A stretch of DNA of 64,000 bases from Patescibacteria group bacterium (GTDB taxonomy: Bacteria > Patescibacteriota > Microgenomatia > 0-14-0-10-38-17): positions 463,437-527,436 of the forward strand of contig JBMNNJ010000001.1 in the NCBI GenBank assembly GCA_050953885.1. Direction: 5' to 3'. The translations under genes and the position numbers were made by a program. Below, piece by piece: positions 2-55,329 of the stretch (position 1 is the stretch's first letter; each line of letters opens with the position of its first letter). The notes beneath the pieces are model-generated. The model was not told where the DNA came from, did not search any database, and was given only the letters and a program-made list of their open reading frames with translations.

Positions 2-2764
2 ACAAGTCCGGGGCAAAAGTTACATGTGCAGGGTACTATTCAAGTTGGTAGCTCTACTTCTGGCGGAAACTTCTACCAAGATGCCCAAACTGGTTGGGAA
101 AGCGTAGTATCTGTTTATCGTGCAGGAGTGCTGAAAAGCGGAATAACAACAAATGGAAACGATGCAATTGGTTTATCAACAGGTGGTATCGCTTGGACTA
201 ATGCAAAATTGGCAATTTTAGGAAACGGCAATGTCGGCATCGGGACGACGAGTCCGGGGGCGAAGTTAGATGTGAGAGCGGGGAATCTTCGAGTTTATGG
301 CGGTAGTGATATTATCTTGCAAGACGACTCAACCGATCCTGGAGATTTGATATTTAGAGATAGTAGTAACACTGAATATGGAAGAGTCTATTCAGCAAGC
401 GGCGGGGCCCTTCATTTAAGTGGTGGTTCAAATACAGATGCTGAACTTACCGTTTATGATTCTGGAGCAATTTATTTCAACTCCGGCATTGGCAACAGAA
501 CCTCGCAGTATCACCAACTACACATCGATGCCGGGACCTGGGAGGTTTTCCGATATAGCTCCAGCCGAAAACTCAAATCAAACATAACTGATTTAGAAAT
601 TGACTCCTCAAAGATATACGACCTCCACCCGGTTTCTTTCACTCCTAACGATAACCCGGATATTAGGAATTTTGGGTTTATTGCCGAGGAGGCTATTGAA
701 ATAATTCCCGACTTGGTCTTGCTTGAGGCCGACGGTAGTCCTGGAGGTTTTCGATACGCCGATTTAAGCGTGCTTATACTTAACGAAATGATCAAGCAAA
801 AACCCATTATAGACAATATTTCCCTTGAATCAATTGACGATTTTAAGCCCAAGGAGGCTAGCGATTCTGCCTTCAGTTTAGTAAAAAAATCTACCGAGAA
901 AATAATTAAAAATGCCGCAGTTTTTGCCGAATTAGCGACAGCCAAGATTTATTCTGGACTTGTCGAAACCACTAACCTTATCACTGATAATTTGACCGCT
1001 AAAAGAATCACCAGCGAGGAGGTTATTTCGCCCCTTATTGAGACCGAGGAGATTAAGTTTAGCGAAAATGCCCGCCTTCGCCAAGGCTCCGGCGGGCAGG
1101 CAAAAGTAGCCATCGTTAATGCTGACGATGAGCCGACAGCGGAGTTTAACACGGAAACAAAAGAAACCACCCTCTTTGGCGACTTGGAGGTGGGCGGCAA
1201 TGTCGGTATTGGGCAGGAAGTCAGCGCCCCCAAGGCCAGCTTTGGCGATTTGCTGGCGCAAAAGATTAACACGGATGAAATTCAGGCAAACACGATTCAC
1301 GCGGATACGGCGCAGATTAGCGCGGATGCGACTATTTCCGGGACTTTATACGTTGACCGCGTGGTGGCCCGGCAGGGAGGGTTTGGAGAATTATTGGCGG
1401 AGAACATCAGCATGGACAGCATAAAGTCTATTGTTAAAGAAGAGGTAGGGATCCTGAATTCCACCCAAGGCGGACAGGCAAGCCAGGATGACGGGGGCGG
1501 AAGTCAGGATGATGATGTTCTTAGCCGTCATTCTGACGAAAGTCAGAATCTGGACAGCGGAGAACCAAGCCAAGAAGAATTCGACCTTCAGGCGCTTTTG
1601 GCAAAAGTGGAGGAATGGGCGGGGACAAGCGCTAAGAACGACTTAACGCTTGAGTGCACAACTGGGGCAGAAAACCAGATCCTGAATCAAGTTCAGGATG
1701 ACGGTTCGGTGGTGAGTCAGAATGACGAGGGCGGGGTGGTTCAGGATGACGAGGGCGGGGTGGTTCAGGATGACGGGAATCTTAATAGTCATCCTGACGA
1801 AAGTCAGGATCAAACCTTAAACCAAGCCCAAAAGAAAAACCTTTGCCTAGTGGATACCGACTTTACCGTTTTGGGCGGGCGGACCTCTCTGGCCGACACT
1901 GCCATCGCCGGCCAACTTTCCGTGGGCAGTTTAGTGATTAACAATAATTCCCTTGATGTTTTAGGCGACACTTTATACATTCAAAAATTAGCCATGGGAG
2001 GGCTGGACATCTTAAACGGCAAACTCACCGTGGACATTGACGGCAATGTCTTTATCGCCGCTCATTTAACCGTGGGCGGGGGCCTGGCCACCAACGAGAT
2101 TAGGCCGATGGAAGGGGGAGATATAACCTTCAATCTGGCTAACGTCATCCCAGACCCGATCCGGGATCAGGGAGAAACAGATCCTGACTTTCGTCAGGAT
2201 GACGGGGGTGGGGCGGTTCAGGATGACGGGAACGAGACGGGAAATAACACGGGATTTGGAAAGTTGTTAGTGAAGGGAATAAATAACGAAACGGTTGCCT
2301 CAATTGACGCCTCCGGCGCGGCCGAGTTTAAAGAGATAGCCACGGATTTATTGCGAATCAACGCGGATAAAGAAGCATCCGAATCAGCCCTCCTTATTGC
2401 CGCCGGCGAGAATTTTGAAAATATCGGCATTCAGGCACCGGGGATCAAGACCAACGCCACCGCCGGCGAGGCCACCCTACCGGCCGGAGAGAAAGAAATA
2501 ATTATCTATAATGACAAACTAACCGACCAGTCGCTGGTTTACCTCACCCCCACCGCGGACACTGGAAACAAAATTTTGTATGTCAAAGAAAAGGTAGGCA
2601 ACACGAATCAAGAACACGAATCAAACGAAAGAGACACGAAATTAACGAATGAAAACGAATTAAACGAATGGAACACGAATGAAACGAATGGTGGATATTT
2701 CGTAGTAGGGCTAAACGAAGCGCTTAACTGGGACGTACGGTTTAACTGGTGGATTATTAACTGA
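2..2764 (+). CDS. Tail-fibre/tail-spike-like repeat protein with an internal intramolecular-chaperone (Peptidase_S74-like) domain. The 5' end is truncated by the window edge, and the ORF carries in-frame insertions of intergenic repeat modules.
   Basis: The reading frame is open from nt 2 with no upstream stop. It contains TSPGxKLxV/NVGIG beta-helix-like repeats. The S74 chaperone signature is SSSRKLKSNITDLE...HPVSF...FGFIAEE...DGSPGGFRYADLSVLILNEMIK. Three low-complexity QDDGG/DPDFRQDD segments are encoded by repeat words, and the last ~30 aa are encoded by the acgaa linker array. Confidence 0.55.
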   Translation, partial: TSPGQKLHVQGTIQVGSSTSGGNFYQDAQTGWESVVSVYRAGVLKSGITTNGNDAIGLSTGGIAWTNAKLAILGNGNVGIGTTSPGAKLDVRAGNLRVYGGSDIILQDDSTDPGDLIFRDSSNTEYGRVYSASGGALHLSGGSNTDAELTVYDSGAIYFNSGIGNRTSQYHQLHIDAGTWEVFRYSSSRKLKSNITDLEIDSSKIYDLHPVSFTPNDNPDIRNFGFIAEEAIEIIPDLVLLEADGSPGGFRYADLSVLILNEMIKQKPIIDNISLESIDDFKPKEASDSAFSLVKKSTEKIIKNAAVFAELATAKIYSGLVETTNLITDNLTAKRITSEEVISPLIETEEIKFSENARLRQGSGGQAKVAIVNADDEPTAEFNTETKETTLFGDLEVGGNVGIGQEVSAPKASFGDLLAQKINTDEIQANTIHADTAQISADATISGTLYVDRVVARQGGFGELLAENISMDSIKSIVKEEVGILNSTQGGQASQDDGGGSQDDDVLSRHSDESQNLDSGEPSQEEFDLQALLAKVEEWAGTSAKNDLTLECTTGAENQILNQVQDDGSVVSQNDEGGVVQDDEGGVVQDDGNLNSHPDESQDQTLNQAQKKNLCLVDTDFTVLGGRTSLADTAIAGQLSVGSLVINNNSLDVLGDTLYIQKLAMGGLDILNGKLTVDIDGNVFIAAHLTVGGGLATNEIRPMEGGDITFNLANVIPDPIRDQGETDPDFRQDDGGGAVQDDGNETGNNTGFGKLLVKGINNETVASIDASGAAEFKEIATDLLRINADKEASESALLIAAGENFENIGIQAPGIKTNATAGEATLPAGEKEIIIYNDKLTDQSLVYLTPTADTGNKILYVKEKVGNTNQEHESNERDTKLTNENELNEWNTNETNGGYFVVGLNEALNWDVRFNWWIIN

Positions 2765-2924
2765 GACACGAATTAAACGAATGGAACACGAAACCAAACG
2801 AATAGAAACGAATCAAACGAAAGGAGAATGAATAAAAGCGAATAAGAGACACGAATTAAACGAAAGAAACACGAATCCAAACGAATGAAAACGAATTAAA
2901 CGAAAGAAAACGAATGGAACGAAA
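2595..2924. repeat. Gene-3' linker array: 10-11 bp phased (a)acgaaNNNN units in the sense orientation cacgaat. It begins inside the 3' end of ORF1.
   Basis: There are about 28 units, cacgaattaa / acgaatggaac / acgaaaccaa and so on. The pattern begins inside the ORF1 3' end, and about 15 units follow the stop. The outer end gacacgaattaaacgaatgg is shared with the array at 3339-3440. Confidence 0.8.
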
Positions 2925-3338
2925 ATGATTTTACACAAAGAATTAAGTTACCAAATAATTGGCGCCGTTTATAACACCAGAAAAATTTATGGCCCCGGTC
3001 AGAAAGAAATTGTTTACCAAAAAGGCCTTGCCGAAGAGTTAAAAGAAAATAATATTCCCTATAAGAGAGAGGTAAACATTAATATTATTTCTCCCAAAAG
3101 CGGCCGTATTTTGAGCAATTATCGGGTTGATTTTGTTATTAAAGAAAGGGTAATTTTGGAATTAAAATCATTAAAATTCCTCCCTCAAAAAATGGAGCAA
3201 CAGTTGTATTCCTACCTTCGTTCAACACCCTATGAAGTTGGATATTTAATTAATATGGGTGGCCCCGAAATTGACATTAAGCGGGTTATCCTCACCAATG
3301 ACCGCAAACCCTATCTCCACCTCTTTCACGTTCGTTAG
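2925..3338 (+). CDS. GxxExxY family protein (PD-(D/E)XK_3-type putative nuclease)
   Basis: It has the motif GQKEIVY (G-x-x-E-x-x-Y) followed by YRVDFVI...ILELKS, which is typical of PDDEXK_3. The gene is nested between inverted acgaa linker arrays. Confidence 0.55.
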   Translation: MILHKELSYQIIGAVYNTRKIYGPGQKEIVYQKGLAEELKENNIPYKREVNINIISPKSGRILSNYRVDFVIKERVILELKSLKFLPQKMEQQLYSYLRSTPYEVGYLINMGGPEIDIKRVILTNDRKPYLHLFHVR

Positions 3339-3440
3339 ATTCGTTTCTATTCGTTTTATTCGTGTCTCATTCGTTAAATTCGTTTTCTTTCGTTAAATTC
3401 GTGTCCTTCGTGTCCCATTCGTTTAATTCGTGTCCCATTC
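3339..3440. repeat. Inverted copy of the linker array (attcgtg orientation)
   Basis: Its reverse complement begins gaatgggacacgaattaaacgaatgggacacgaa and ends aacgaatagaaacgaat, matching the two ends of the 2765-2924 array. Confidence 0.8.
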
Positions 3441-5444: not shown

Positions 5445-5582
5445 ATCTTTATACTATTATAGAAGCGGGGAGGTGTCAAGAGATATATGCAACGTAAAGC
5501 GTAACTTGTAATGCGTAATAAGCAAGTGCAAAGCGCAAATATCAAAAATTAAAATACAAATGTAAAATGCAAAAAGTTAGTA

Positions 5583-5876: not shown

Positions 5877-5996
5877 AAGTTAAAAGTTCTTTTGCTTTAC
5901 TTTTTAATTTTAACTTGTACTTTTGACTTTTAACTTTTGCCTTTTGAATTTTTTTCGTTCCCCATTCGTTTTAATTCGTGTTTTCCAATCCCGTGT

Positions 5997-7140: not shown

Positions 7141-7300
7141 AATCCGCCCGCTGGCGGATTCGTCAGAATGACGGCAGCCGTGCCGTCATTCCGGACTTGA
7201 TCCGGAATCTGTGTTATTGTCAGAAAACGCAGATCCTGACTTTCGTCAGGATGACGTTTACAGCAGAATAATGTTATTCGCTCATTCGTGTCCATTCGTT
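7141..7300. repeat. Type-3 composite element, a direct copy relative to 5712-5876
   Basis: The modules are ccgcccgctggcgg, attcgtcagaatgacgg..ccgtcattc and gatcctgactttcgtcaggatgac, occurring in the same order. Confidence 0.8.
7232..7291. repeat. Left arm of a 60-bp perfect inverted repeat bracketing rho
   Basis: The sequence gatcctgactttcgtcaggatgacgtttacagcagaataatgttattcgctcattcgtgt is the exact reverse complement of 8585-8644. Confidence 0.9.
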
Positions 7301-7329
7301 TCTAATTCGTTTTTATTCGTGTTTTTTTC

Positions 7330-8544: not shown

Positions 8545-8584
8545 CGTTAGAAAACACGAATTAAAACGAATTAAAAACGAATAA

Positions 8585-8644
8585 ACACGAATGAGCGAAT
8601 AACATTATTCTGCTGTAAACGTCATCCTGACGAAAGTCAGGATC
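8585..8644. repeat. Right arm of the 60-bp perfect inverted repeat bracketing rho
   Basis: The sequence is acacgaatgagcgaataacattattctgctgtaaacgtcatcctgacgaaagtcaggatc. Confidence 0.9.
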
Positions 8645-8831
8645 GGCTTTAAAGCTTGATGCTTGAAACGCTTGAGGCTTGAATCGCTTGAATCGTTTAA
8701 TGTTTTTACGTTTCAAACGTCTCATGCATTACGAAAGTCAGGATCGGCTTTAAAGCTTGATGCTTGAAACGCTTGAGGCTTGAATCGCTTGAATCGTTTA
8801 ATGTTTTTACGTTTCAAACGTCTCATGCATT
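8630..8831. repeat. Perfect tandem duplication of a 101-bp unit with gcttga words
   Basis: The unit acgaaagtcaggatcggctttaaagcttgatgcttgaaacgcttgaggcttgaatcgcttgaatcgtttaatgtttttacgtttcaaacgtctcatgcatt occurs at 8630-8730 and again at 8731-8831. Confidence 0.85.
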
Positions 8832-9136: not shown

Positions 9137-9904
9137 CTAATCTGTTTTTGTCAAACCCCCCGCGCTTAAGACGGCAAAGTCAAAAAACGACGGCACCTGG
9201 GGCCAGCCTTGAAAAACAGAAATTTTTCTCACCACATCCCCCACTTTTGCTTCCGCTTCCACCGTTGTTCCCTGTCTGGGAAGAGGTTCCTTAGTAGTTA
9301 CCGTCAATTGCCGGGAAGGATCAGTACTATAAAAACGAACATTAACAAAATTTGCTCCTGCCGGCAGGTTATTAATAGTACCGCTTTTCGCCAAGCCTTG
9401 GCAACCTCCACCGCCCCCCAAATAATAACGCGCCACTTTATAACCGCTGCTTTGATAATAAACCGCCGCCTCAATGTTCTCCGCCCCCTCCCAGCAAAAA
9501 GTTAAAGCAGTGCCGCCATAACTGATATCAGCCGGAAAAATTCCTCCGTCCAAGGTAATGCTGTTGAGCCAAAAAGTGGTCGCCTGACCAGGAAAAATTT
9601 GCCGCTTGGTTACCTCCCCTGTTGGATCTTGGGTAACCTTAACTTCCGCCTCTTCCCCTCCAGGCTCAAGAGTAAGAAAATTCGGAAAATCCTGACCTGC
9701 CTCAATCGCTCTTAAGGCCTCCTCAATACCCGCCTCGGCGGCTTCAAAAGCCTTGCTGGAAGCGGTTTCTTTCTCGGAAATGGAGATATCGGTGGTGGTC
9801 CGCGCCACTAACGCCAGCCCGGTGGTAAGAGCCACCGATAAAACCAAAAGGATAATCAAAAGCGCCTGACCGGAAGATTTCCCTCCCCTGTTCATTAATA
9901 ACAA
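9137..9904 (-). CDS. PilX-N-like type IV pilus minor pilin/assembly protein
   Basis: The N-terminus GQALLIILLVLSVALTTGLALVA resembles the PilX_N hydrophobic segment. The rest is Gly/Thr-rich and predicted extracellular. Confidence 0.4.
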   Translation of the reverse strand: MLLMNRGGKSSGQALLIILLVLSVALTTGLALVARTTTDISISEKETASSKAFEAAEAGIEEALRAIEAGQDFPNFLTLEPGGEEAEVKVTQDPTGEVTKRQIFPGQATTFWLNSITLDGGIFPADISYGGTALTFCWEGAENIEAAVYYQSSGYKVARYYLGGGGGCQGLAKSGTINNLPAGANFVNVRFYSTDPSRQLTVTTKEPLPRQGTTVEAEAKVGDVVRKISVFQGWPQVPSFFDFAVLSAGGLTKTD

Positions 9905-10065
9905 GAATATAACAAAAAGAAGAGGGTGTCAAGCAAAAAGAGTATTAAGTATAAAAAAACTCAAATGGCAAATGTTAAAACTAAAAACTACAACTCAAAA
10001 CTTAAAACTTGCAAAATACATACACTTTGAAAAGATTTGACATTTGACATGTAGTTTTGAGTTTT

Positions 10066-10251
10066 GATCCGCCAGCTGGCGGACAGCATCATCCCCGTAG
10101 CTGTCATTCCTAAATTAAATTCAGGACAGGCTCTGACGAAAGTCAGGATCTGCGTTCTTTAGATATTAATAATAACGATTCTGAATCAAGTTCAGAATGA
10201 CGCTAATCGTAGCCGTTATTTTGACGAATCCGCCGGCGGGCGGATTGAGCT
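10066..10251. repeat. Type-3 composite element with terminal ccgccNgcNggcgg palindromes
   Basis: The order is ccgccagctggcgg, then catccccgtagctgtcat, cctaaattaaattcagg, gatc..gacgaaagtcaggatc and ctgaatcaagttcag, ending in ccgccggcgggcgg. Confidence 0.8.
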
Positions 10252-12128: not shown

Positions 12129-12206
12129 TAATTCAGCGAATTAACACGAATGGGAAACGAAAAAAAATCAAAAGTCAAAAGTTAAAAGTCAAAATTACAA
12201 ATACAA

Positions 12207-12312
12207 TTCTGTAGGGGCGGACCTATGTGTCCGCCCGTCAAAGGGTCCGTACTGCTTATTTAAAACCATTAATCGGGTCGACACATGGGTCGACCCCTAC
12301 AAATTCCTTTGA
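12207..12312. repeat. Type-4 conserved dyad element, copy 1
   Basis: The sequence is ctgtaggggcggacctatgtgtccgcccgtcaaagggtccgtACTGCTTAtttaaaaccattaatcgggtcgacacatgggtcgacccctacaa. Confidence 0.8.
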
Positions 12313-13453: not shown

Positions 13454-13550
13454 TCATCCTGCCTCCTTTTTTTATAAGATTATAAAGAATTATAACATAA
13501 AAAAATACATTATTAAACTGCTAAACTGTTAAATTGTTAAACTGTTGCCG

Positions 13551-13740
13551 GTGACAGACAAATGCAAATCTCAAATCGCAAATCTCAAAACTCAAAACTA
13601 CAACTCAAAACTCAAAACGCAAATGGCAAATCTACATGTTAAATGTTAAAACTTTTTTAAAGTTTAAAGTTGTTTTTTTTAGATTTGAGTTTTAACATGT
13701 AGTTTTGAGTTTTGCGATTTAACATTTGAGTTTATTTTTC
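13551..13740. repeat. Type-2 word hairpin (ctcaaaa / cgcaaat / ctacatgttaaa words) with an aaacttttttaaag loop
   Basis: The left arm caaatgcaaatctcaaatcgcaaatctcaaaactcaaaactacaactc...gcaaatctacatgttaaatgttaaaac pairs with the right arm gttttaacatgtagttttgagttttgcgatttaacatttgagttt. Confidence 0.75.
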
Positions 13741-13743
13741 GTT

Positions 13744-14721
13744 TCAATTCGTGTCTTCTCCCTCCACCCACTCCCTAATCTCCTCCCAATCCCCCGCTTT
13801 TGGCTCAAAAACCCAAAGACCATATTTTGACACCGGCGGGGTGGTTAAAAACTCTGCCGGCAAAGAAAGAAATTCAAAAGAAATTTTGTTTTTAAGATAA
13901 GCCTCACCCAAACGCAATAAAACCGGCGCAGGCAAGTCTTTCTCTAAGTTATTATAAAAACGATAAAGCTGACCAGAAAAAGCCGGCTCTTTTAAGAGAC
14001 TAAAAGAACTGACCTTTGCCAAGACCGCTTCCACCACCTGAAGCTGGCGCCGATTGCGCGCCAAATCATTACCTTCATCGGGGTTAGCGCTTTTTCGGGA
14101 ACGAATGTATTGCAAGGTCCTTTCGCCATTCATCAGCTGTTTTCCTTCCTCAAAGCGAATCGTCGTCGTTTGGCCAGAACCATCATCAAGAGGATAGGCA
14201 TCATCTTCAAAAGCTTCAACTACCTCAACCTCAATTCCCCCCAACAAATCAATTAATTCCGAAATTTTGTCAAAATTTAATAAAATTGAATAATTTATTT
14301 CCTCGCCGGTAATCGCTCTAACATTTTCCTTAATTAAATAGGTAGGATCAGCGGGGTTAGTTTTTTTACCATAATAATAAAGAGCGTTTATTTTCGTGGC
14401 TAAATCAGAAATCCATAAATCGCGAGGAAGAGAAAGAAAGCTGATTTTTCCCCTTGAAGGCCTGGCCATACCAAGAATAATCGTATCGGTTAAAAGCGTT
14501 TTCTCTCCCGGCCGGCTATCAAGCCCTAAAACCAAAAAATTAAAATCCTCAAATTGGGTATTTTTTGTGGCCAAAAGAAGTTGTTTTAAATCATTATTGG
14601 TAATACCCGCCGCTTTAGTAAACTCGGAAACATACCAATAAGAAAAAGAGAAAAGAACCAGAAGAGAAAAAAGAAAAAGAACCAAAAGAGAGTAAAGGAA
14701 GATTTTAAGGGGCTTGGGCAT
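13744..14721 (-). CDS. LytR-CpsA-Psr (LCP) family protein
   Basis: It has an N-terminal TM segment. LCP core motifs are present: LVLGLDSRPGE...RTDTIIL-like TLLTDTIILGMARP...ISFLSLPRDLW. Confidence 0.75.
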   Translation of the reverse strand: MPKPLKIFLYSLLVLFLFSLLVLFSFSYWYVSEFTKAAGITNNDLKQLLLATKNTQFEDFNFLVLGLDSRPGEKTLLTDTIILGMARPSRGKISFLSLPRDLWISDLATKINALYYYGKKTNPADPTYLIKENVRAITGEEINYSILLNFDKISELIDLLGGIEVEVVEAFEDDAYPLDDGSGQTTTIRFEEGKQLMNGERTLQYIRSRKSANPDEGNDLARNRRQLQVVEAVLAKVSSFSLLKEPAFSGQLYRFYNNLEKDLPAPVLLRLGEAYLKNKISFEFLSLPAEFLTTPPVSKYGLWVFEPKAGDWEEIREWVEGEDTN

Positions 14722-15086: not shown

Positions 15087-15431
15087 AAATTTTAAAACTT
15101 ATCTTTAATAAGAGTAGGAAAGAGCATCTTTAAAATGCCGAAAACCATTAGTACCGGTCAGCTTAATTTGTTGCCAAACTTACACCTCCGGCCTATCAAC
15201 CAGGTAGTCTCCCTGGGGTCTTAAAGACTCTTCATCTTGGGATCGGTTTCCCGCTTGAGATGCTTTCAGCGGTTATCCAAAACAAACATAGCTACCCAGC
15301 ATTGCGGCTGATGCCACAACTGGACCACCAGAGGTTTGCCCATCCCAGTCCTCTCGTACTAGGGACAGATTCCCTCAAGAATCAAAACGGTTACTGCGGA
15401 TAGAGACCAAGCTGTCTTACGCATATTATCC

Positions 15432-16176
15432 CTCTATTACTAGAGGTATAGACTATATCACCACCCCGCCATAACGGGGGTTTGGCGTATTATAATGGCG
15501 TTAATTTTTAAGATTATCTTCTTAAAGATTTATCTTAAACAGCCACTATCTAGTTTTTATTAAAAAACTAAGTCGTTACGGGGACAATAATTTGCTCTTT
15601 ACCAAATATTTTTTCACTGTTATGGAAGTAATTGTTCTTTTCTTGGAATAATTAAGAAAAGAAAAACCATCAATATCCTTAGCGATTTTCATGAGCATTT
15701 CCGGCGAGTAATCTCTAGCATTATGAGGATATTTTTTGATTATCCCTAATGATAGTTTTGCCTGGTCATGCTTAATCCTTAAGTAAGGATATAATGCTTC
15801 CAAAACCTCTTCGACAGCCTTGAAGCCAACAATGTTATACTCGCAAATGCCATCATTGCGATCGCGAATATAACCATACTTTAGCTTCTCTTTCAACCAT
15901 AACAGAAACCAACGATACTTTTTATTTTGATAAAAAATAACGCTGGCTTTAACCTGAAAACCAAGACGGTAATCCGATTTCTTAATAAGTTGAAAAAGAA
16001 TACAACCATCACCATCTAAAAATCCGGCGATGTAGGCTTTATCTTTGTCTAGCATAATATTGTCTTCCCTCGGTGTTGTCCTTTGTCGACCAGCTTAAAA
16101 TCAACAAGGATTTCACCGATATTAGCCAAATTTATCTATCATATTACTACGATAGAGCGCAGTATTCTACGCTTTG
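15432..16176 (-). mobile_element. Group I-type intron in 23S domain V, near E. coli position 2593, encoding a LAGLIDADG endonuclease
   Basis: The exon sequence GAGCTGGGTT is interrupted. The exon resumes with GCGTAAGACAGCTTGGTC, which corresponds to CGTGAGACAGTTCGGTC. ORF 15576..16055 lies entirely inside the insertion. Confidence 0.6.
15576..16055 (-). CDS. LAGLIDADG homing endonuclease (single-motif)
   Basis: The motif [13 protein letters not shown] is present and the ORF is located inside the 23S insertion. Confidence 0.8.
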
Positions 16177-16670
16177 AACCCAGCTCACGTAGGTTTTTAA
16201 TGGGCGAACAGTCCAACCCTTGGGGGCTTCTTCACCCCCAGGTTAACCTGAGCCGACATCGAGGTCGCGAACTGGCCCGTCGATATGTACTCTTGGGACC
16301 AACCACGCTGTTATCCCCGGGGTAGCTTTTATCCGTTAAGCCCCGACCCTTCCACGCGGTATCGGGGGATCACTAAGACCTGCTTTCGCATCTGCTCGAC
16401 CCGTCGGTCTTGCAGTTAAGCTGGCTTTTGCCTTTGCACTTTACTCGCGGTTTCCATCCGCAAGAAGCCAACCTTTGTACGCTCGCGTTACCTTTTAGCA
16501 AGCGACTGCCCCAGTCAAACTGCCCACCAGACACTGTCCTAGTTTGCGTTTCCAGCAAACATTAGTCAGAATTGTTATTTCCAAAGAGAGGTGTTTCATT
16601 GTTGCCCCGCCAAAAGGCGGGGCTCCCTCCTACGCTAAACAATTGGAAATAACTCCTCAATATCAAGTTG

Positions 16671-16702
<32 letters not shown>

Positions 16703-16829
16703 AGTAACTAGGCCGCATCTTCACAGCCATTTCAATTTCGCCGAGTAGAGGTTTGTAGACAGTTGCTTGGTCGTTGGGTCTTTCATACCGGTCGGAACTC
16801 ACCCGACAAAGGACTTCGCTCAAAACTAA

Positions 16830-17478
16830 TTGAGTTTTGGACTATATCTTATCGCCTAAGGCGATTCTAGCGTATAGTCTCTGGGGATTCTAAAAAAAAT
16901 GGTCTTCTCTTCCTAGTATTCATCGTTTCGATTATTTTAACAATCTTTCTTACCCCTTCTAAATGAAGATGTTCACTATTTTCCATTAAGGACAACACTT
17001 GAGAAAATTTCTCAAAATCATCCCTTTTAGATGTTTTAAGGGGATATTGTTTGAAGAAAGGGATAATTATTTCCCTTAATTCTTTTTGGGATCGGACACA
17101 ATAACGATAAAGATCTTCTTTATGGTTATCATCCCTTCTATTAACAAAAAGAGAACCACAACCGAAAAAGTTTTTCATTACTTTTAGGGCTTGTTTACTC
17201 TTTTCCCCTTGAGTGACGATGAACTCCGGCATAATCTGCCAATCGGAAGAAGTAGTCGGATTTTTATGAAGGCTAATTGTAAAACAGCCTTCACCGTCAA
17301 CAAACCCAACTATCCAACCAATTATTTTTAGTCTTTCCTGCTGATTGCCTCTACTGGAAGAATTTTTACTTGGCATAAAAATGACAATTTAATTATGCCA
17401 GAGTATCTCCAGAATAACAAGGTTTTCCAGCATATAGCTAGATTTTACTACGGCAGTGTTTAATGTCCTTACCGTAGA
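16830..17478 (-). mobile_element. Group I-type intron in 23S domain IV, near E. coli positions 1917-1931, encoding a LAGLIDADG endonuclease
   Basis: On one side the exon block ...GAAGCCCCGGTGAACGGCAGCAGTAACTCTAAC is present. On the other side the exon resumes with ...GCGAAGTCCTTTGTCGGGTGAGTTCCGACC. The boundaries are approximate. Confidence 0.5.
16867..17376 (-). CDS. LAGLIDADG homing endonuclease
   Basis: The motif IIGWIVGFVDGEGCF is present and the ORF lies inside the second 23S insertion. Confidence 0.8.
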   Translation of the reverse strand: MPSKNSSSRGNQQERLKIIGWIVGFVDGEGCFTISLHKNPTTSSDWQIMPEFIVTQGEKSKQALKVMKNFFGCGSLFVNRRDDNHKEDLYRYCVRSQKELREIIIPFFKQYPLKTSKRDDFEKFSQVLSLMENSEHLHLEGVRKIVKIIETMNTRKRRPFFLESPETIR

Positions 17479-17479
17479 A

Positions 17480-17640
17480 CAGTTAGAGTTACTGCTGCCG
17501 TTCACCGGGGCTTCAGTTCCTCGCCCCCTGGGCGAGAATAACAATTTCCGCTGATTAAAAACAGATTTCCACAGATAAATCCGTGTTAATCCGCTCAAAA
17601 ATCCGCGTTAATCCGTTATTCTTGTCCAGAGGACAAGGTT
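17480..17640. repeat. 23S expansion segment built from cggattaac words, about 100 nt longer than the corresponding region after E. coli position 1852
   Basis: The words cggattaacgcgg / gagcggattaacacgg repeat after the conserved block GGAAGGTTAA. Confidence 0.5.
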
Positions 17641-17751
17641 CCTTAACCTTCCGGCACTGGGCAGACTTCAGCCCCTATACCTCCTCTTTTAGGAGTTTGC
17701 AGAGACCTGTGTTTTTGGTAAACAGTCGCCAAGCAGTCTTTTGTTGTAGCC

Positions 17752-17885
17752 CGCCTCGCGCTCCGCGCGAGGAAATCCGAATTTCTAAACCCGAAACCCG
17801 AAACAAATCACAATTTTTCAAATCCGCCCGCTGGCGGATTGAATTTGTTTCTAATTTCGTTATTCGTGCTTTCGAATTTCCTTGT
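17752..17885. repeat. Hairpin insertion in 23S made of ccgaaa/tttcg words around the core palindrome ccgcccgctggcgg
   Basis: The left arm ggaaatccgaatttctaaacccgaaacccgaaacaa pairs with the right arm ttgtttctaatttcgttattcgtgctttcgaatttcc. The core is the same as in the intergenic type-3 elements. Confidence 0.6.
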
Positions 17886-19167: not shown

Positions 19168-19207
<40 letters not shown>

Positions 19208-19524
19208 TAGCAAGAGTATTTAGCCTTATCCCGTGGTCGGGACAGATTCGCACAAAGTTTCTTCCCTTGTGTTACTTGGGTACTAGGTTCATTCTTCTCT
19301 GGTTTTGTGTACCAGACTTTCACTGTCTTTGGTTATTTATTCCAAAATATTCCACTACCAAAAAAGAATGAATAATCCTAGCCCCGCAACCCCCACCTTG
19401 TGCGAAGCACAAGGTAAGTTTAGGCTTTTCCGTTTTCGCTCGCCGCTACTTGCGGAATCACTTTCGTTTTCTTATCCTTCGGGTACTTGAATGTTTTCTT
19501 CCCCCGAGTTCCCTCACGCCGCTT

Positions 19525-19640
19525 CGCGGCGAACTCAAAACTCAAAACGCAAAACTCAAAATTTAAATTTTAAAAAATTTTGAGATTTTAGTTACAGTTT
19601 TGACATTTGAGATTTAAAATTTAAGTTCGCAGTGAAACGG
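19525..19640. repeat. Type-2 word hairpin (ctcaaaa / cgcaaaa / tttgag) inserted near the 5' end of 23S
   Basis: The sequence gaactcaaaactcaaaacgcaaaactcaaaattt...aaatttgagattttagttacagttttgacatttgagatttaaaatttaagttc is flanked by 23S sequence. Confidence 0.55.
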
Positions 19641-19922: not shown

Positions 19923-20195
19923 AAAGCAAATGTAATGTAAAATGTAAAAAGTAGGGGCGTATTGCATACGCCCGCCAACAGGAAACAAACGACCAATGCT
20001 AAATTCAAAAGTTAAAATTTAAAATTCAAAATTGCAAGTCAAAAGTTAAAAGTTCTTTTGCTTTACTTTTGAATTTTGCATTTTGCATTTTGAATTATTT
20101 TTATTCGTTTCCCATTCGTTTTAATTCGTGTCTTTTTAGCCCGTCACTGCGAGCAAATTAGAATTATATCGGTAAAGGGCTTTCTTGTCAAAGTT
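19923..20195. repeat. Composite intergenic-type element (linker, type-1 hairpin, GC palindrome) occupying the tRNA-Ile/tRNA-Ala spacer of the rRNA operon
   Basis: It contains the palindrome gtaggggcgtattgcatacgcccgcc and a type-1 hairpin (caaaagttaaaatttaaaattcaaaattgcaagtcaaaagttaaaag...). It ends with the linker ttcgtttcccattcgttttaattcgtgtc. Confidence 0.6.
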
Positions 20196-20417: not shown

Positions 20418-22088
<1,671 letters not shown>

Positions 22089-22321
22089 AGTAAGGGCTTA
22101 ACTTTTAAAGCTAAACCCTTTCAAAAAAACTTCCTACCACTTTTGGTTTGTCAAAGAGCCAAAAAACCTCTGCCTTCAAGCAGAAGTAATTTCTATTTTA
22201 ACACGAAAAAAGAAGAAGGTAAAGAGAAAAAATGGCTAAAAAACACGAATGGGCACGAATAAATAAACTCAAATGTTAAATCGCAATCCGCCAGCTGGCG
22301 GATCAAAATTGCAAATACAAT

Positions 22322-23035: not shown

Positions 23036-23079
23036 AGCTAAAATACACGAATTAACGCGAATAGGAAACGAATAAAAAT

Positions 23080-24399: not shown

Positions 24400-24429
24400 A
24401 AGAAACACGAATTAAAACGAATAAAAATA

Positions 24430-25515: not shown

Positions 25516-25956
25516 TTATCTTACCACCAAAAACATTAGTAAAACAAGAGCGAAAATTGCCAAGAAAAAAAGGGCTTTCTCCTCCTTTCTTTTAAGATAA
25601 TAGGTTCTTAAAAAATAACCGTTAATCGCCAAAACCATACCGTGGGCAAAAATTGCTTCGTTGGAGATAAGTAACCACAGGGAAAAAAAATAAAAAACGG
25701 CCTGAAAAGAAAAAGAGTTTAAAACCGGCGCAAGAGAGCGAGTAATTTCTTGCCCAAAATCCGGAGGCAACCGCAAACGTTGCCAATACTTCTCTCCCTC
25801 GGGACCAAAAATTTCCATTAACAACCAACCGAATAGCTCGCCTAAAAAGAAAAGGAGAGGCAAAAACCAATTATTGCCACCCAAACTTCCCATAAAATAC
25901 CAAACGAGAGCAACCAGGGCGGTAGTAAGAAAAGAAAAAGAAATTGGAAAAGACAT
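25516..25956 (-). CDS. Hypothetical small polytopic membrane protein
   Basis: There are four hydrophobic segments and no recognisable motif. Confidence 0.35.
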   Translation of the reverse strand: MSFPISFSFLTTALVALVWYFMGSLGGNNWFLPLLFFLGELFGWLLMEIFGPEGEKYWQRLRLPPDFGQEITRSLAPVLNSFSFQAVFYFFSLWLLISNEAIFAHGMVLAINGYFLRTYYLKRKEEKALFFLAIFALVLLMFLVVR

Positions 25957-26009
25957 TTTTTAGATTATTGAAAGACGCGAATTAACACGAATGGGAAACG
26001 AAAAAAAAT

Positions 26010-29397: not shown

Positions 29398-29499
29398 CCC
29401 TCTTTAAGATACTAAGATATTAAGATACTAAGAAATTAAGAAATATTGTTAAAATTGTCAAAAACGTGAATTAACACGAACGAGAAACAAGAAAATAAT

Positions 29500-34159: not shown

Positions 34160-34275
34160 ACAAAACCTAAATCAAAATTCAAAAACATTTTTTAATTTTT
34201 GGTTCTGGTCTTTGAGCTTGGTTTTGCTTTTTGATATTTGATTTTTGATTTGTTTTTTTCGTTTCTCATGCGCGC
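34160..34275. repeat. Type-5 word element (cctaaatcaaaattcaaa / ggtctttgagcttggttttgc)
   Basis: The same word order recurs at 49690-49800, 50590-50700, 48940-49010, 52320-52400 and 53750-53820. It is preceded by the palindrome gagccccgccgcagcggggc. Confidence 0.65.
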
Positions 34276-34325
34276 CGATTCGTATTTTTTAGCAATTTGA
34301 CAGTTTAACAATTTAGCAATTTAAC

Positions 34326-35640: not shown

Positions 35641-35709
35641 AAAATACAATTTTCGTTTCTCATTCGTTAACTCGCGTTTTTTTTCTATCTTTAGTATAAT
35701 ATATTTACG

Positions 35710-36945: not shown

Positions 36946-36991
36946 ATCTTTCGCGTTCATTCGTGTCTTTTGGCAATGTTATAATCAAAAC

Positions 36992-39244: not shown

Positions 39245-39470
39245 TAGTGGGCAATAAAAAACTCAAATCGCAAATCGCAAAACTCAAAACTACAACGCAA
39301 AACTTAAAACTTGAAAGACAAAAACAGAATTACAATTTAGAAATACAAATATTAAGCCCTAAAGTTTTTTTTAGTTTTAAGTTTTAACATGTAGTTTTGC
39401 CATTTGAGTTTTAAGTTTTGAGTTTTAACATGTAGTTTTGCCATTTGCGTTTTGAGATTTGAGATTATCT
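39245..39470. repeat. Type-2 word hairpin (long-loop variant, inverted)
   Basis: See 35425-35640. Confidence 0.75.
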
Positions 39471-39509
39471 TTCGTTTCTCATTCGCATCAATTCACGTCC
39501 TTCCACAAT

Positions 39510-40589: not shown

Positions 40590-40810
40590 CAAAGGTCAAA
40601 ACTCAATCCGCCAGCTGGCAGACAAGTTAAAACTCAAAACTTAAAACTCAAATCTCAAAACTACATGTTAAAACTCAAAACTAAAAAAACTTTAGGGCTT
40701 AATATTTGTATTTCTAAATTGTAATTCTGTTTTTGTCTTTCAAGTTTTAAGTTTTGCGTTGTAGTTTTGAGTTTTGCGATTTGAGATTTGAATTTTGAGA
40801 TTGTCTTTCG
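40590..40810. repeat. Type-2 word hairpin (long-loop variant), preceded by ccgccagctggcagac
   Basis: It is nearly identical to 35425-35640. Confidence 0.75.
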
Positions 40811-40881
40811 TTTCTCATTCGCGTTAATTCGTGCATTTTACAGTATCGCAATTTAACCATTTTTCTTTTATAATAAAATTA

Positions 40882-43131
40882 ATGGCGAGGGTTAAAAGAT
40901 GTTTAACCAAACTAACTAACTTTTTGGCCGCCATTGGCAAGCCCTTTTTTCATCTCCTCCTTTTTCTTCCTCTTATTATCGGTTTAATTTTCTCCTTTTT
41001 CTGGCGCATTTTCATTTTTACCATCAGTACTATATATAATAGTATAAGCACTCTCTTTGCTTCGGCTAAAAAATTATTTCTTTTTTTTTGCCAATACAAT
41101 ATACTGAAGAGGGTGAAAAAAACCCTTTTCTTAAAAATTTTTATTTATTTTGTTTTCCCTTTGGCTATCGCCATTTCTTTTTATTTTTTAATTTTAAAAG
41201 ATCTCCCCTCGCCCAACCAGCTAATCGCCCGTGATGTCCCCCAAACAACAAAAATTTATGACCGCCACGGTCAGTTGCTTTATCAAATTTATCACGACCA
41301 AAACCGCACTCTTGTTCCCCTTGAGAAAATCCCTGAAAACGTTAAAAACGCAACTATCGCTATTGAAGACGCCGATTTTTATCACCACCGGGGTATTTCC
41401 GTTAGCGGTCTGGCTCGGGCTCTTAAGCAACTCCTTCTTCGGGGTGAGCCCCTTCAGGGAGGATCAACGATCAGTCAGCAGTTGGTTAAAAACGCTCTTT
41501 TAACACCGGAAAAAACCCTAACCCGAAAAACACGGGAAATAATTCTGGCTTTCTTGGTGGAAAACCGGTTTTCTAAAGAAGAAATTCTCCAGATGTATTT
41601 AAATGAAATTAGCTATGGCGGCACCGCTTACGGCATTGAGGCCGCCAGTCAATTTTACTTTGGCAAGTCCTGCCGTGATTTAAGCCTGTCTGAAGCGGCT
41701 TTTCTCGCCGGTCTGCCCGCTTCTCCTACCACTTTTTCTCCCTTTGGCGCTTATCCGCAAATGGCCAAAATAAGACAGGCGGAGGTTTTGCGCCGAATGA
41801 GAGAAGAGGGTTTTATTAACGATGACCAATTTAAAAAGGCCAAAAGTGAAGAACTAAAACTTAACCTTCCCCGGGAAGAAATCCTCGCCCCTCATTTTGT
41901 GATGTTTGTCCGCGACGAATTAACCAAACTTTTTCCCCCGCGCTTAATTGAAGAAGGGGGCCTTCAGGTCAAAACCACCCTGGACTTGGAAATTCAAAAA
42001 AAAGCCGAAACAATTGTGGCCGAGGAAATTAAAAAAATCAAAGCCTACCAGGCTGAGAATGGCGCCGCTTTAGTTACCAACCCCAAAACCGGGGAGATTT
42101 TGGCGATGGTGGGCTCGCGCAATTATTTTGACCAAGAAATTGACGGCAATTATAATATCACCACCGCCTTGCGCCAGCCAGGATCGGCGATTAAGGTGGT
42201 TAACTATGCTCTGGCCTTACAAAACGGCTACACTTTAGCCACCATTATCCCCGACACCCCGGTTACCTACCAACTTGCCGGTTCCCCTCCCTATTCCCCC
42301 CAAAATTATGATGGCCGTTTTCATGGGCCGGTAACACTGCGCACCGCTTTGGCCTCCTCTTATAACATTCCCGCCGTTAAGGTGCTGGCGTCCCTTGGGC
42401 CAGAAAAGATGGCTCGGCTTGGCCGGGAAATGGGCATCACCACTTGGGATGATCCTTCCCGTTTTGGCCTTTCCCTTACCTTGGGCGGCGTCGAGGTTAA
42501 AATGACCGACTTAGCCGTTGTCTATGGCGTTTTGGCAAATTCGGGTAAAAAAACCCCCCTCCAAACAATTATAGAAGTAAGCGATAGCTCGGGCAAAATT
42601 TTATGGCACAACCCTTGCCTTGCCTTGCCCCAAGAAGCGTCTTCAAATTTTAACAAGAAAATTTCCTTTTCCTCCACCGTGGAAGCGCAAGAACCAGCCT
42701 GCCAAAATCAGGCAATTCCCGCCGGAGTCGCCTTCCTGCTCACTGATGTTCTTGCTGACAATTCGGCTCGTCAGCCGGCCTTTGGCGCTAATTCTCTTCT
42801 TTATATTCCGGGCCAAACGGTGGCCGTTAAAACCGGTACCAGTAATAATTTACGCGATAATTGGGCTATTGGTTATACCCATGATTTTTTAGTGGCCGCT
42901 TGGGTGGGCAACAATGATAACCAACCGATGAAAAAAATTGCCTCCGGCGTTACCGGCGCCACTCCCATTTGGCGCCAAATCACCGATTTTCTTTTGGAAA
43001 AATACCCCTCTTCCCCTTTCCTGCCGCCGCCGGGAGTAGTCAAGAAAAAAGTCTGCCAGCAAATTGATCGGGAAAAAAATATTTGTCTTAAAGAAAGGGA
43101 AGAATGGTTTCTGGAGGAAAGACACGAATAA
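40882..43131 (+). CDS. Class A penicillin-binding protein, paralog of 36992..39193
   Basis: The GT51 motifs are IAIEDADFYHHRG and GGSTISQQLVKN. The transpeptidase motifs are SAIK, SYN and KTGT. The ATG at 40882 is the probable start. Confidence 0.85.
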   Translation: MARVKRCLTKLTNFLAAIGKPFFHLLLFLPLIIGLIFSFFWRIFIFTISTIYNSISTLFASAKKLFLFFCQYNILKRVKKTLFLKIFIYFVFPLAIAISFYFLILKDLPSPNQLIARDVPQTTKIYDRHGQLLYQIYHDQNRTLVPLEKIPENVKNATIAIEDADFYHHRGISVSGLARALKQLLLRGEPLQGGSTISQQLVKNALLTPEKTLTRKTREIILAFLVENRFSKEEILQMYLNEISYGGTAYGIEAASQFYFGKSCRDLSLSEAAFLAGLPASPTTFSPFGAYPQMAKIRQAEVLRRMREEGFINDDQFKKAKSEELKLNLPREEILAPHFVMFVRDELTKLFPPRLIEEGGLQVKTTLDLEIQKKAETIVAEEIKKIKAYQAENGAALVTNPKTGEILAMVGSRNYFDQEIDGNYNITTALRQPGSAIKVVNYALALQNGYTLATIIPDTPVTYQLAGSPPYSPQNYDGRFHGPVTLRTALASSYNIPAVKVLASLGPEKMARLGREMGITTWDDPSRFGLSLTLGGVEVKMTDLAVVYGVLANSGKKTPLQTIIEVSDSSGKILWHNPCLALPQEASSNFNKKISFSSTVEAQEPACQNQAIPAGVAFLLTDVLADNSARQPAFGANSLLYIPGQTVAVKTGTSNNLRDNWAIGYTHDFLVAAWVGNNDNQPMKKIASGVTGATPIWRQITDFLLEKYPSSPFLPPPGVVKKKVCQQIDREKNICLKEREEWFLEERHE

Positions 43132-43224
43132 ACACGAACGGGAAACGAAAAAAAATTCAAAATTTAAAATTCAAAAGTCAAAAGTGCAAGTTAAAATTAA
43201 AAAGTAGTAAAGCAAAAAAACTTT

Positions 43225-48669: not shown

Positions 48670-48769
48670 AACTAATCTTTAGTATAGCACAAAACGTATT
48701 TTGTATTTAGCATTAAGACAAGAACCAACGCGGACGAGAAACGAAAGAAAATAATTCAAAATTCAAAAG

Positions 48770-49624: not shown

Positions 49625-49846
49625 AAAAGTTAAAGAAATTGTTTATCTAAATTTAGCACGCTTTTCTCAAGCCAGATAGCAAAAACCCCACACAAAAAAA
49701 TGCAAAATTCAAAAATCAAAATGCAAAACCAAGCTCAAAAACCAAAACTTGAAAATATTTTTGAACTTTGCTCTAGGTTTTGATCTTTGATATTTACACT
49801 TTGCGCTTATTTTGGTAATGATTTGTTCTTTCGTTTCTCGTTCGTG

Positions 49847-50506
49847 TCAATTCGCGTTTTTTAACAATTCTTCCAGTCTTTTTATCTTCTCCCCCGGACT
49901 ATCTGCCTTCCAAATGCTATTCCCCACGCAAAAAACTTCTGCCCCAGCCTCAAGACAGGAGGGAATGGTTTTCGCGTTTAGGCCGCCGTCAACGGCAATT
50001 TGAAAATCCCAACCCTCTTTTTGCCGCCAAGAGGAAAGCTCGCGGATTTTAGAAAGGCAAGAGGGGGAAAATTTTTGCCCTCCTCTCCCGGCCCTAACCG
50101 CCAGCACTAAAACTTGATCGCAAAGGTCCAAGGCCTGTAATTTTAAACTCTCCACCGGCGTTTCAAGATTAATAGCCAAGCCCGCCTGATAACCTTCTTC
50201 TTTAGCCCGACGGACAAATTCTAACTGGCTGGTCATCATCTCAATTTGGCCAATCACCAAACCCGTGGGCTCCGGCAAATCTTTATCAAGATAAACCACC
50301 GGGTCAGCCGTCATTAAATGCCAATCCAAAAAAAGACTCTCCTCAGAACTAACCACGCCCATTAAATCCTCCGGACTAATTGTTTGCGGCAAGGCAAACC
50401 ATTGCTGAATAATATCAATCTGAACCCGAGAAGCTTTTCCTTTTAAAAAAGAAATCTTTTCTTTAGCCTCATTAGGGTCATTGGTTAAAATCGTGGGAAC
50501 AATCAC
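49847..50506 (-). CDS. rpe: Ribulose-phosphate 3-epimerase
   Basis: The motifs are DWHLM, GLAINLETP, RGGQKF and VDGGL...AGAEVFCVGNSIW. Confidence 0.75.
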   Translation of the reverse strand: MIVPTILTNDPNEAKEKISFLKGKASRVQIDIIQQWFALPQTISPEDLMGVVSSEESLFLDWHLMTADPVVYLDKDLPEPTGLVIGQIEMMTSQLEFVRRAKEEGYQAGLAINLETPVESLKLQALDLCDQVLVLAVRAGRGGQKFSPSCLSKIRELSSWRQKEGWDFQIAVDGGLNAKTIPSCLEAGAEVFCVGNSIWKADSPGEKIKRLEELLKNAN

Positions 50507-51978: not shown

Positions 51979-52149
51979 TACTTAATCATTAAATCATGAA
52001 ATCATTAAATCATTAAATCAAAAGAGCAAAAAACAGTTAAAAATTACTAAAATTGTATTTTTTTAAACACGCGAATTGACGCGAATGAGAACGAAAAAAA
52101 CAATTCAAATATCAAATATCAAAGCGCAAAACCAAGTTCAAAGACCAAA

Positions 52150-54520: not shown

Positions 54521-54587
54521 CCAAATACCAAATACAATTTTCTTTTCTCGTTCGTGTTTTTTAGCAATATAGCAACTTATCGGTTAT

Positions 54588-55262: not shown

Positions 55263-55329
55263 GGCTACATTGTTAAAAGACACGAACAAACGAACGGGAA
55301 GCGAAAATTGTATTTTGTATAAAGTATTA

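Follow-up and report, generated by a model that had tools for sequence, protein, structure and literature searches.

Phased ACGAA arrays at gene borders of a Patescibacteria genome match the arms of a GxxExxY nuclease cassette

Repetitive extragenic palindromic (REP) sequences are short, dispersed intergenic repeats that lie inverted around a vertically inherited Y1 HUH transposase (REP-associated tyrosine transposase, RAYT), and repeat and gene lineage change together. The Correia elements (NEMIS) of Neisseria have 26-bp terminal inverted repeats (TIRs), a TA duplication and defined lengths; they are RNase III substrates and shape transcript ends. In Tn7, Mu and Ac/Ds, a short transposase-binding motif is repeated several times at both ends, the two ends being inverted relative to each other, and the extreme tip is conserved. 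The intervening sequence (IVS) of the Coxiella 23S rRNA gene is a 28-bp inverted-repeat stem around an S23p gene, with GACAGAT repeats by the start of the open reading frame (ORF) whose number varies between strains; RNase III cuts the first repeat, and this IVS is considered a selfish element for which a transposon origin has been put forward (PMC4990558). Here we describe arrays of the pentamer ACGAA in a stretch of 64,000 nt from a Patescibacteria group bacterium (GCA_050953885.1, contig JBMNNJ010000001.1, positions 463,437 to 527,436). This whole stretch is referred to as the window, and all counts of linkers, genes and spacers given below refer to it. We give about an even chance to the reading that these arrays are the terminal arms of a selfish family of insertion cassettes, similar to IVS and to miniature inverted-repeat transposable elements (MITEs), with boxes that bind protein.

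One full cassette is present in the window, at 2765-3440, directly after a gene that itself contains an array. These features are, in order:

2600..2691, + strand: ACGAAT array in coding sequence, inside the S74-domain giant protein ORF 26..2764; encodes NTNQEHESNERDTKLTNENELNEWNTNETN
2765..2924, + strand: left cassette arm, ~14 A(A/C)ACGAAT boxes; its outer end GACACGAATTAAACGAATGG begins 1 bp past the S74 stop
2925..3338, + strand: GxxExxY / PDDEXK_3 nuclease gene, 137 aa; cassette cargo, between left and right arm
3331..3440, - strand: right cassette arm, 11 boxes (TTCGT on the + strand)

The GxxExxY ORF lies exactly between a 160-bp ACGAA array and a ~100-bp TTCGT array. The two arms are inverted, with the inner array ends toward the gene, and each arm consists of direct repeats of an 8-bp box, A(A/C)ACGAAT, one helical turn apart and separated by 2-3 free nt. 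The right arm extends over the final codons of both GxxExxY and the convergent TPR gene (product end ..EEWDTN*). The outermost 30 nt of both arms (three boxes, with the outer tip AAAGACAC...) match a linker of three boxes and ~30 bp, GACACGAATTAACACGAATGGGAAACGAAA, which with its A-run has the consensus AAAGACACGAATTAACACGAATGGGAAACGAAA(A)n and recurs at gene ends along the window; because of this match we take the 30-bp linkers to be copies of the cassette arm tip. As the outer tip points away from the element interior, genes look bracketed by TTCGT...ACGAA. The initial annotation of this DNA had placed its longest linker arrays at 2595-2924 and 3339-3440. The arrays at 2765-2924 and 3331-3440 are real, but 2595-2719 holds no linker and is translated inside ORF 26..2764, and the GxxExxY gene between the two long arrays had been overlooked.

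The GxxExxY ORF matched PF13366 (E = 2.3e-26; 92.9 bits versus a cut-off of 22) and TIGR04256 (99.5 bits versus a cut-off of 35). Its PD-(D/E)XK residues D69, E79 and K81 are invariant and its structure model shows a confident PD-(D/E)XK fold, Cas4-like, for which reasons the nuclease looks active. A sequence search of the PDB with GxxExxY returned no homologue, the viral contigs searched contained no relative, and the literature consulted says next to nothing on the family and nothing on its function. GxxExxY is no known transposase, yet the ends that flank it are those of the linker; Pfam scans of ~56 window ORFs returned no Y1_Tnp.

We then described the linker and its box across the window. 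Successive ACGAA/TTCGT units are spaced at 9 bp (n=16), 10 bp (n=18) or 11 bp (n=15), with a mean of 10.0, which bears out the phasing at the helical turn that had been proposed. Chains of at least three ACGAA units were observed 9 times versus 0.003 expected from first-order Markov resamples, and ACGAA was fourfold denser in intergenic than in genic DNA (7.5 versus 1.8 per kb). The positions conserved beside the pentamer in the arrays are A(-2), A/C(-1) and T(+5), the remaining inter-box positions being free; a conserved short box roughly once per helical turn, with variable spacers between, is the layout of a phased protein-binding array. One option in the initial annotation, a binding array for a nucleoid or other protein, therefore still appears plausible, as the 8-bp box is conserved and the 2-3 nt between boxes are free. 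The canonical 19-mer of the linker had 14 matches at up to 3 mismatches versus 0.03 expected, and an nhmmer profile of the 30-bp linker placed sites at 24 ends of genes or RNA genes, 12 at 5' and 12 at 3' ends. An independent metagenome assembly (L001) contains these arrays without any difference. The linker sites outside the cassette are:

5951..5984, - strand: three-box linker after the M23 peptidase stop (nhmmer E = 4.9e-7)
7277..7325, - strand: four-box linker after the rho stop (nhmmer)
8552..8599, + strand: four-box linker before the rho start; mirrors 7277-7325 including the inner extension TGAGCGAATAACATTATTCTGCTG
12133..12164, + strand: linker 5 bp ahead of the radA start (nhmmer E = 9.2e-8)
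13738..13757, - strand: linker overlapping and supplying the LytR stop codon (nhmmer)
20101..20134, - strand: linker in the 16S-23S spacer after the first tRNA (nhmmer E = 6.6e-8)
22240..22260, + strand: two-box linker ~150 bp upstream of 16S, with a TGtTAAAAT -10-like box in between (nhmmer)
23042..23075, + strand: linker before the SpoU methylase start (nhmmer E = 2e-7)
24405..24422, + strand: two-box linker, 7 nt before the ferredoxin ATG (nhmmer)
25972..26005, + strand: linker before the start of ORF 25516..25956 (nhmmer E = 1.1e-8); unpaired in the spacer fold
29461..29488, + strand: linker upstream of a tRNA pair, with TTGACA-17-TAATTT in between (nhmmer)
34255..34288, - strand: linker after the Fic stop (nhmmer)
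35649..35680, - strand: linker upstream of DUF5654, with TATAAT between linker and ATG (nhmmer)
36950..36969, - strand: two-box linker before the likely true start of PBP1 (nhmmer)
39468..39501, - strand: linker after the stop of a GalT-like gene (nhmmer)
40804..40837, - strand: linker before PBP2 (nhmmer E = 5.9e-8)
43119..43152, + strand: linker overlapping and supplying the PBP2 stop codon (nhmmer)
48722..48748, + strand: degenerate linker upstream of transketolase-N, with TGcTATACT between linker and ATG (nhmmer)
49827..49860, - strand: linker overlapping the rpe stop (nhmmer)
52066..52098, + strand: linker upstream of gap (nhmmer)
54538..54559, - strand: degenerate linker after the tpi stop (nhmmer)
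55278..55309, + strand: linker before the tpi start (nhmmer)

In every one of the 24 linkers the GAC end is turned toward the gene, such that on the sense strand TTCGT precedes starts and ACGAA follows stops. The distance from the GAC end to the gene ranges from 13 bp inside to 152 bp outside and is mostly below 40 bp; the linker often overlaps the stop codon, and elsewhere the start codon is only a few bases away. For annotation this means that linkers provide stop codons and produce false N-terminal ORF extensions. The positional enrichment at starts and stops expected by the initial annotation was found by this profile search of the window, far beyond chance, although its statement that most genes carry the linker words was wrong: 21 of 57 genes do, and 3 (rho, PBP2 and tpi) carry them at both ends. 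Among its named examples, rho, radA, the SpoU gene, the ferredoxin gene, both PBP genes, gap, tpi and rpe stand, and pgk has only a degenerate remnant.

The polarity of the linkers follows from where they lie in the spacers. For all four arrangements of neighbouring genes, the + strand across a spacer reads ACGAA...TTCGT; with the tip facing the gene and the A-run facing the spacer, the linker carries no information on gene direction. The 5'/3' polarity that had been noted holds at all 24 sites but is a geometric identity, and the linker marks where gene and spacer meet, without telling which way the gene runs. Genes, among them an rRNA operon with LAGLIDADG-bearing introns and ordinary housekeeping genes, make up about 82% of the window; ~18% is non-coding, with 37 intergenic spacers of at least 80 bp that contain several repeat families. 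Exactly one linker is found in 25 of these 37, where the hairpin module always has its A-run side toward it, and two arms are found only at the GxxExxY locus. The linker is fused to at least 5 different inner modules, which include AT-rich hairpins of 7-bp repeats and one GC-hairpin module, and since the junctions are conserved in 2-7 copies, linker and module were copied together. The window showed no linker standing alone, away from a module. Promoter-like -35/-10 boxes lie between linker and gene at TktN, DUF5654, the tRNA pair and 16S, which would place the linker outside the transcript at those genes. A supposedly streamlined candidate-phyla genome can, it appears, hold ~18% non-coding DNA of modular palindromic repeats, and these break assemblies, enter coding regions in frame and mark rearrangement points.

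The same architecture recurs at GxxExxY genes elsewhere. Of the 33 non-redundant GxxExxY loci collected, 5 came via homologue look-ups, a metagenome scan supplied 23, and the other 5 were taken from annotated plasmid or chromid records. The upstream and downstream flanks are inverted repeats in 23 of the 33 (~70%; p <= 0.01 versus shuffles); L054 became the 24th once its mis-set annotated start codon was corrected. Loci with this architecture span several phyla and include Bacteroides, Sphingomonas and Treponema. Their arms contain 2-6 hexamer copies at ~10-bp spacing and a conserved tip (AAGCACAC... / ...GTGTGCTT), and lineages share the outer tip AAAGCACAC / AAAGACAC. The hexamer is lineage-specific yet common to both arms: ACGAAT in the clade of the window, ACAGAT in Gottesmanbacteria and others, and ACGGAT, ACAGGA/ACTGGA, ACAAAT/ACTAAT or CGCGGAA in further lineages. 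The unit is ACAGAGG in Bacteroides finegoldii and ACGCGAAG in Sphingomonas, where the cassette sits neatly between fabD and fabG. The protein tails at the N and C termini (TDRTDK, NTN, SVKSV) are translated arm sequence. Most GxxExxY homologues lie on ~1-kb contigs, as would be expected if the arms break assemblies. In the window and in L011, L053, L027, L032 and L041 the cassette comes immediately behind the giant S74 protein with its ..FNWWII C-terminus, although the hexamers differ, and L054 retains the wider order radA-rho-M23-TPR-GxxExxY-S74; from the same slot with different hexamers it follows that both arms switched hexamer in concert, in place and without re-insertion. This cross-phylum combination of GxxExxY with inverted arms appears to be previously undescribed. 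It offers, in the shared lineage-specific hexamer arms, a first testable substrate for a widely annotated family, and it ties that family to the long-unexplained ORF-bearing intervening sequences of rRNA genes.

Comparison of strains and relatives showed that the arms are unstable and recombinogenic. Among strains with GxxExxY proteins 92-97% identical, the upstream arm has ~14, 13 or 10 boxes and the downstream arm 11, 7, 6 or 4, and one contig (L018) joins the coding array straight to an arm, consistent with array-to-array deletion. L004 has the M23 gene and the first linker box (5951-5984) in common with the window and then continues with a different spacer and with NDK in place of TPR; the two diverge after the first box, which puts the rearrangement point within the linker. 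The array in the S74 protein lies in a loop of its C-terminal domain, between the conserved LYVKxK and GGYFVVG..FNWWII segments, and its insert, 30 aa long in the window, is shorter in L022 (~17 aa) and L011 (10 aa), whereas L032, L027 and L041 have none; in L053 the S74 protein has SVTSVTS at this position, an insert of the hexamer type that L053 itself uses. Gene-less cassettes with two arms also occur: one at 4096-4241 of L054, between LytR_C and M23, and one in frame in a loop of the L025 TPR membrane protein, five orthologues of which are without the insert.

The window belongs to an uncultivated member of the Microgenomates group (candidate phyla radiation); its Rho protein is 78% identical to that of Candidatus Shapirobacteria, with Microgenomates and Woesebacteria the next named matches. 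L060 and L062 (Rho identity 77-79%) are compact, without spacers or linkers, and the Shapirobacteria-like L061 has ATCTGTCCY arrays in its spacers instead of ACGAA linkers, so the massive spread of the linker is lineage-specific. The cargo of the M23/TPR/S74 slot also differs by lineage, being GIY-YIG, an IS200-like Y1 transposase, S23p or GxxExxY (slot genes: L011 5938-6219, GIY-YIG; L060 12272-12877; L061 6504-6872 and 9036-9656; L062 3313-3837), with Y1 (IS200-like) transposase genes near the locus in L060, L061 and L062. In L061 an S23p gene (PF05635) lies between M23 and TPR, within inverted arms made of AAAACTC-type heptamers; the AT-rich hairpins in the window spacers are built from repeats of this kind. 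The GIY-YIG gene of L011 lies between ~110-bp direct repeats. Two JGI contigs with the same rho gene (L002 and L003) form large palindromes, rho-M23-TPR-GxxExxY followed by an inverted copy; these are probably fold-back assembly or amplification chimeras that arose at inverted repeats. A scan of 185,579 species genomes for the exact 19-mer gave 6 matches, about chance level, one of them a true relative: L010 (JAQURC010000013.1), labelled a Candidatus Omnitrophota metagenome-assembled genome, shares with the window the linker and several repeat modules, which there lie between type IV pilin-like genes. L010 may be mis-binned, or the repeats may be more widely shared.

Set beside the systems described above, the locus resembles each in part. 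With the 23S IVS of Coxiella and Leptospira it shares a small ORF within inverted terminal repeats and variable short repeats near that ORF, and the S23p gene of L061 with its inverted heptamer arms occupies the M23/TPR neighbourhood of the window. The window elements, however, lie between or inside protein genes and at tRNA borders and not in an rRNA helix; their cargo is a PD-(D/E)XK nuclease, whereas that of the IVS is a four-helix-bundle protein; and their boxes are 9-11 bp apart, in arms poorly complementary between the boxes, where the IVS has tandem heptamers. The best functional analogy may be REP/RAYT, as the linker is likewise dispersed in intergenic DNA and inverted around the nuclease gene. 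The locus is not a REP/RAYT system, because the enzyme is different (a PF13366/TIGR04256 GxxExxY protein, not a Y1 HUH, IS200-like transposase) and the repeat is no palindrome: the linker is made of direct repeats, without a GC-rich palindrome, and is unpaired in the fold, and the arms are direct-repeat arrays. As in the Rickettsia palindromic elements (RPE), in-frame inserts are tolerated as hydrophilic loops (the S74 protein of the window, the TPR protein of L025), but the in-frame copy of the window is one-armed and of variable length, and the family has a protein-coding, master-like copy. The abundance of small inverted-repeat elements at gene borders, possibly co-transcribed, recalls Correia/NEMIS, themselves characterised by their TIR, TA duplication, fixed length and RNase III processing. 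Unlike Tn7, Mu and Ac/Ds, the GxxExxY cassette has no recognisable transposase, is syntenic and not multicopy, and showed no target duplication. Terminal inverted repeats at both ends of a copy, as in a MITE, are absent from the window outside the GxxExxY locus, although two-armed gene-less copies do exist in L054 and L025. Of the three options in the initial annotation, terminal inverted repeats of the spacer elements came closest, in that the linker is an arm tip, yet most spacers are one-armed. The literature consulted on palindromic intergenic repeats of the candidate phyla radiation contained nothing specific.

Judged by the sequence patterns, the boxes most likely bind a protein, for which the nuclease of the cassette itself is the leading candidate. 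The conserved boxes would act on DNA as a phased array of sites; the nuclease encoded between the arms could bind them, in a partnership like that of RAYT transposases and REP sequences; and the binder would maintain the similarity of both arms and, now and then, copy or move a segment bounded by them. Several observations weigh against this selfish-cassette reading. Most spacers of the window are one-armed, so these are no classical TIR-bounded MITEs; GxxExxY is syntenic over deep divergence, which opposes frequent transposition of the full cassette; and no target-site duplication or freshly empty site was readable in the relatives compared. The arms are mismatched in L030, and the flanks are direct, not inverted, in L055, L059 and L031. 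The arrays of L061 occur within 11 kb that contain no GxxExxY gene and, together with the GACAGAT repeats beside S23p in Coxiella, suggest that the repeats may belong to the vehicle and not to the cargo, which weakens the case for GxxExxY as the binder. Linked inheritance alone would also make the hexamer follow the protein lineage. A wider proposal is tentative and in our judgement doubtful: that GxxExxY with inverted arms of phased hexamers constitutes an undescribed cross-phylum class of selfish cassette whose nuclease recognises its own hexamer array, much like REP/RAYT with a different enzyme; that ORF-bearing rRNA IVS and in-frame inserts in candidate phyla would be products of the same vehicle; and that this genome would represent a runaway spread, with arm tips at ~2/3 of the long spacers.

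We consider it unlikely that the repeats instead serve as RNA punctuation, as in rRNA IVS, with arms or hairpins that fold, are cut by RNase III and leave short-leader mRNAs, or with a hairpin and U-run that terminate transcription. The precedent would be the Coxiella IVS, with its 28-bp stem, variable GACAGAT and RNase III cut at the first repeat (PMC4990558). Pairing of the short arms would be near perfect in Bacteroides and Sphingomonas, G.U wobbles included, several genes whose 5' linker lies near the ATG have no Shine-Dalgarno sequence, and spacer-like palindromes lie within the 16S and 23S genes. The spacer at 25957-26124 also fits, with a hairpin that folds stably on its own (z = -3.9), then U8, then the linker, which is single-stranded between the U-run and the start codon. 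The arm-to-arm mismatches of 34 cassettes speak against pairing: they comprise 185 transversions, 92 gaps and 48 G.U-compatible versus 51 A.C-type transitions, fall in the 3-5-nt spacers between boxes, which are not complementary, and affect ~20-25% of positions. With G.U-compatible changes not in excess over A.C, there is no signature of an RNA stem. The gene-less cassette of L054 folded no better than shuffled sequence (z = -1.6). Most window linkers are without a partner arm, several 5' linkers lie upstream of a likely promoter, and the same DNA yields ACGAA in the RNA of 3' regions and UUCGU in that of 5' regions, half of the linkers each, i.e. different RNAs. Pairing of the untranslated regions in a panhandle, as had been suggested, is not supported: only 3 of 57 genes have both linkers, several likely promoters are downstream of the linker, and the linker is unpaired in the fold. 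Conserved phased boxes, free spacers and strand-symmetric use would suit a protein-binding array on double-stranded DNA better than an RNA helix, although RNase III could still cut the better-paired short arms, e.g. those of Bacteroides.

Quite unlikely, in our view, is a neutral minisatellite maintained by slippage, unequal recombination and gene conversion between inverted copies, recognised by no protein or RNA and oriented by the rule that spacers run from A-rich to T-rich. Copy number is indeed hypervariable between strains, L018 fits array-to-array deletion, the in-frame coding arrays differ in length, and all hairpin spacers are A-rich then T-rich, with the polarity seen in the linkers. 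Duplication and decay would, however, affect all positions alike, whereas the boxes are conserved and the DNA between them is variable; the outer tip is kept across lineages, and in several phyla one specific gene family is surrounded by this architecture. A regulatory or architectural array of the host, read by a transcription factor or nucleoid protein or acting as curved DNA, with activating sites or insulators, is very unlikely. The 10-bp phasing does place the boxes on one helix face, the four L061 arrays all aim at the downstream gene and three end just upstream of a promoter-like -35/-10, and several 5' linkers of the window lie just upstream of promoter-like boxes. Half of the linkers, though, follow stop codons with the tip toward the 3' end of the gene, the hexamer shifts between close lineages and with GC content, unlike the site of a conserved host factor, and no linker accompanies the genes whose TTGACA-17-TAtAAT promoters are clearest. 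Intrinsic curvature, proposed in the initial annotation, is not supported by the wedge model, which predicts 13-15 degrees per 30 bp in the arrays, below the window mean of 20 and the shuffled arrays (~40), with 70 for a phased A-tract control (approximate values, with Bolshoy parameters). We regard as highly improbable a linker that is a pre-existing landing pad beside which AT-rich hairpins insert in fixed orientation, in the style of IS200/IS605. It would explain one linker per spacer, found in 25 of the 37 long spacers and always on the A-run side of the hairpin module; Y1 (IS200-like) genes lie in the same neighbourhood of L060, L061 and L062, and L004 and the window carry different spacers past the shared first box. 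Yet the Pfam-scanned ORFs of the window yielded no Y1 transposase, the window has no solo linker lacking a module, linker-module junctions conserved in several copies fit composite copying better, and the ends of linker-less hairpins are variable.

Other candidates were tried and rejected. As a promoter inside the linker, GTTAAT/TTTAAT makes a poor -10 box, and a promoter scan of the first 14.9 kb gave only low-scoring (9/12) matches over linkers, all on the strand opposite to the adjacent gene (e.g. 12141-12168 and 7243-7272). CsrA-type GGA arrays, considered for the ACAGGA lineages, were ruled out by the other lineages, which are without GGA, and attC-like cassettes of an integron by the flanked genes, which are housekeeping genes in both orientations.

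The spacers of the window have further features. The AT-rich hairpin spacers always present an A-rich arm and then a T-rich arm, on either strand, the reverse type not being seen, and a T-run often follows them, resembling weak bidirectional terminators. A GC-rich repeat of ~105 nt has 6 copies (12203-12312, 22320-22430, 29540-29645, 46643-46700 (partial), 48805-48915 and ~52190-52300), always on the + strand although genes are mostly on the - strand, and folds as a single long imperfect hairpin (-48.7 kcal/mol, z = -6.1). This hairpin repeat (searched as ~100 nt) had no meaningful family match in Rfam, whose matches in the window at the gathering score were to rRNA and tRNA only. A dispersed 16-bp perfect palindrome, TCCGCCAGCTGGCGGA, occurs at 15 spacer-type sites at up to 2 mismatches versus 0.01 expected (e.g. 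10068-10083, 22287-22302, 35432-35447 and 48774-48789), with one site in the 16S insert and one within the 23S region. The rho gene is bracketed by an inverted repeat of ~100 bp (7230-7329 and 8545-8650) that reaches past the linker into TGAGCGAATAACATTATTCTGCTGTAAACGTCATCCTGACGAAAGTCAGGAT, a module that also follows the arrays in L010, and the spacer upstream of rho contains a perfect 101-bp tandem duplication (8630-8831). Clear TTGACA-17-TAtAAT promoters with short leaders were found at 5451-5479, 9904-9932 and 13489-13516 (- strand), serving the TPR gene, ORF 9137..9904 and the S1 gene, none of which has a 5' linker; the motif GGTGTCAAG is common to two of them.

The rRNA genes also carry inserts. 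The 23S gene (15140-19794, - strand) contains two inserts with LAGLIDADG homing endonuclease ORFs, 15576..16055 and 16867..17376 (PF00961); its Rfam match covers 16092-19794, yet 23S domain VI sequence runs to ~15140. AT-rich palindromic inserts of the 7-bp-repeat kind seen in the spacers are present near the 5' ends of the rRNA genes, at ~19530-19640 (23S, without an ACGAAT arm) and ~21896-21990 (16S), and look like intervening sequences.

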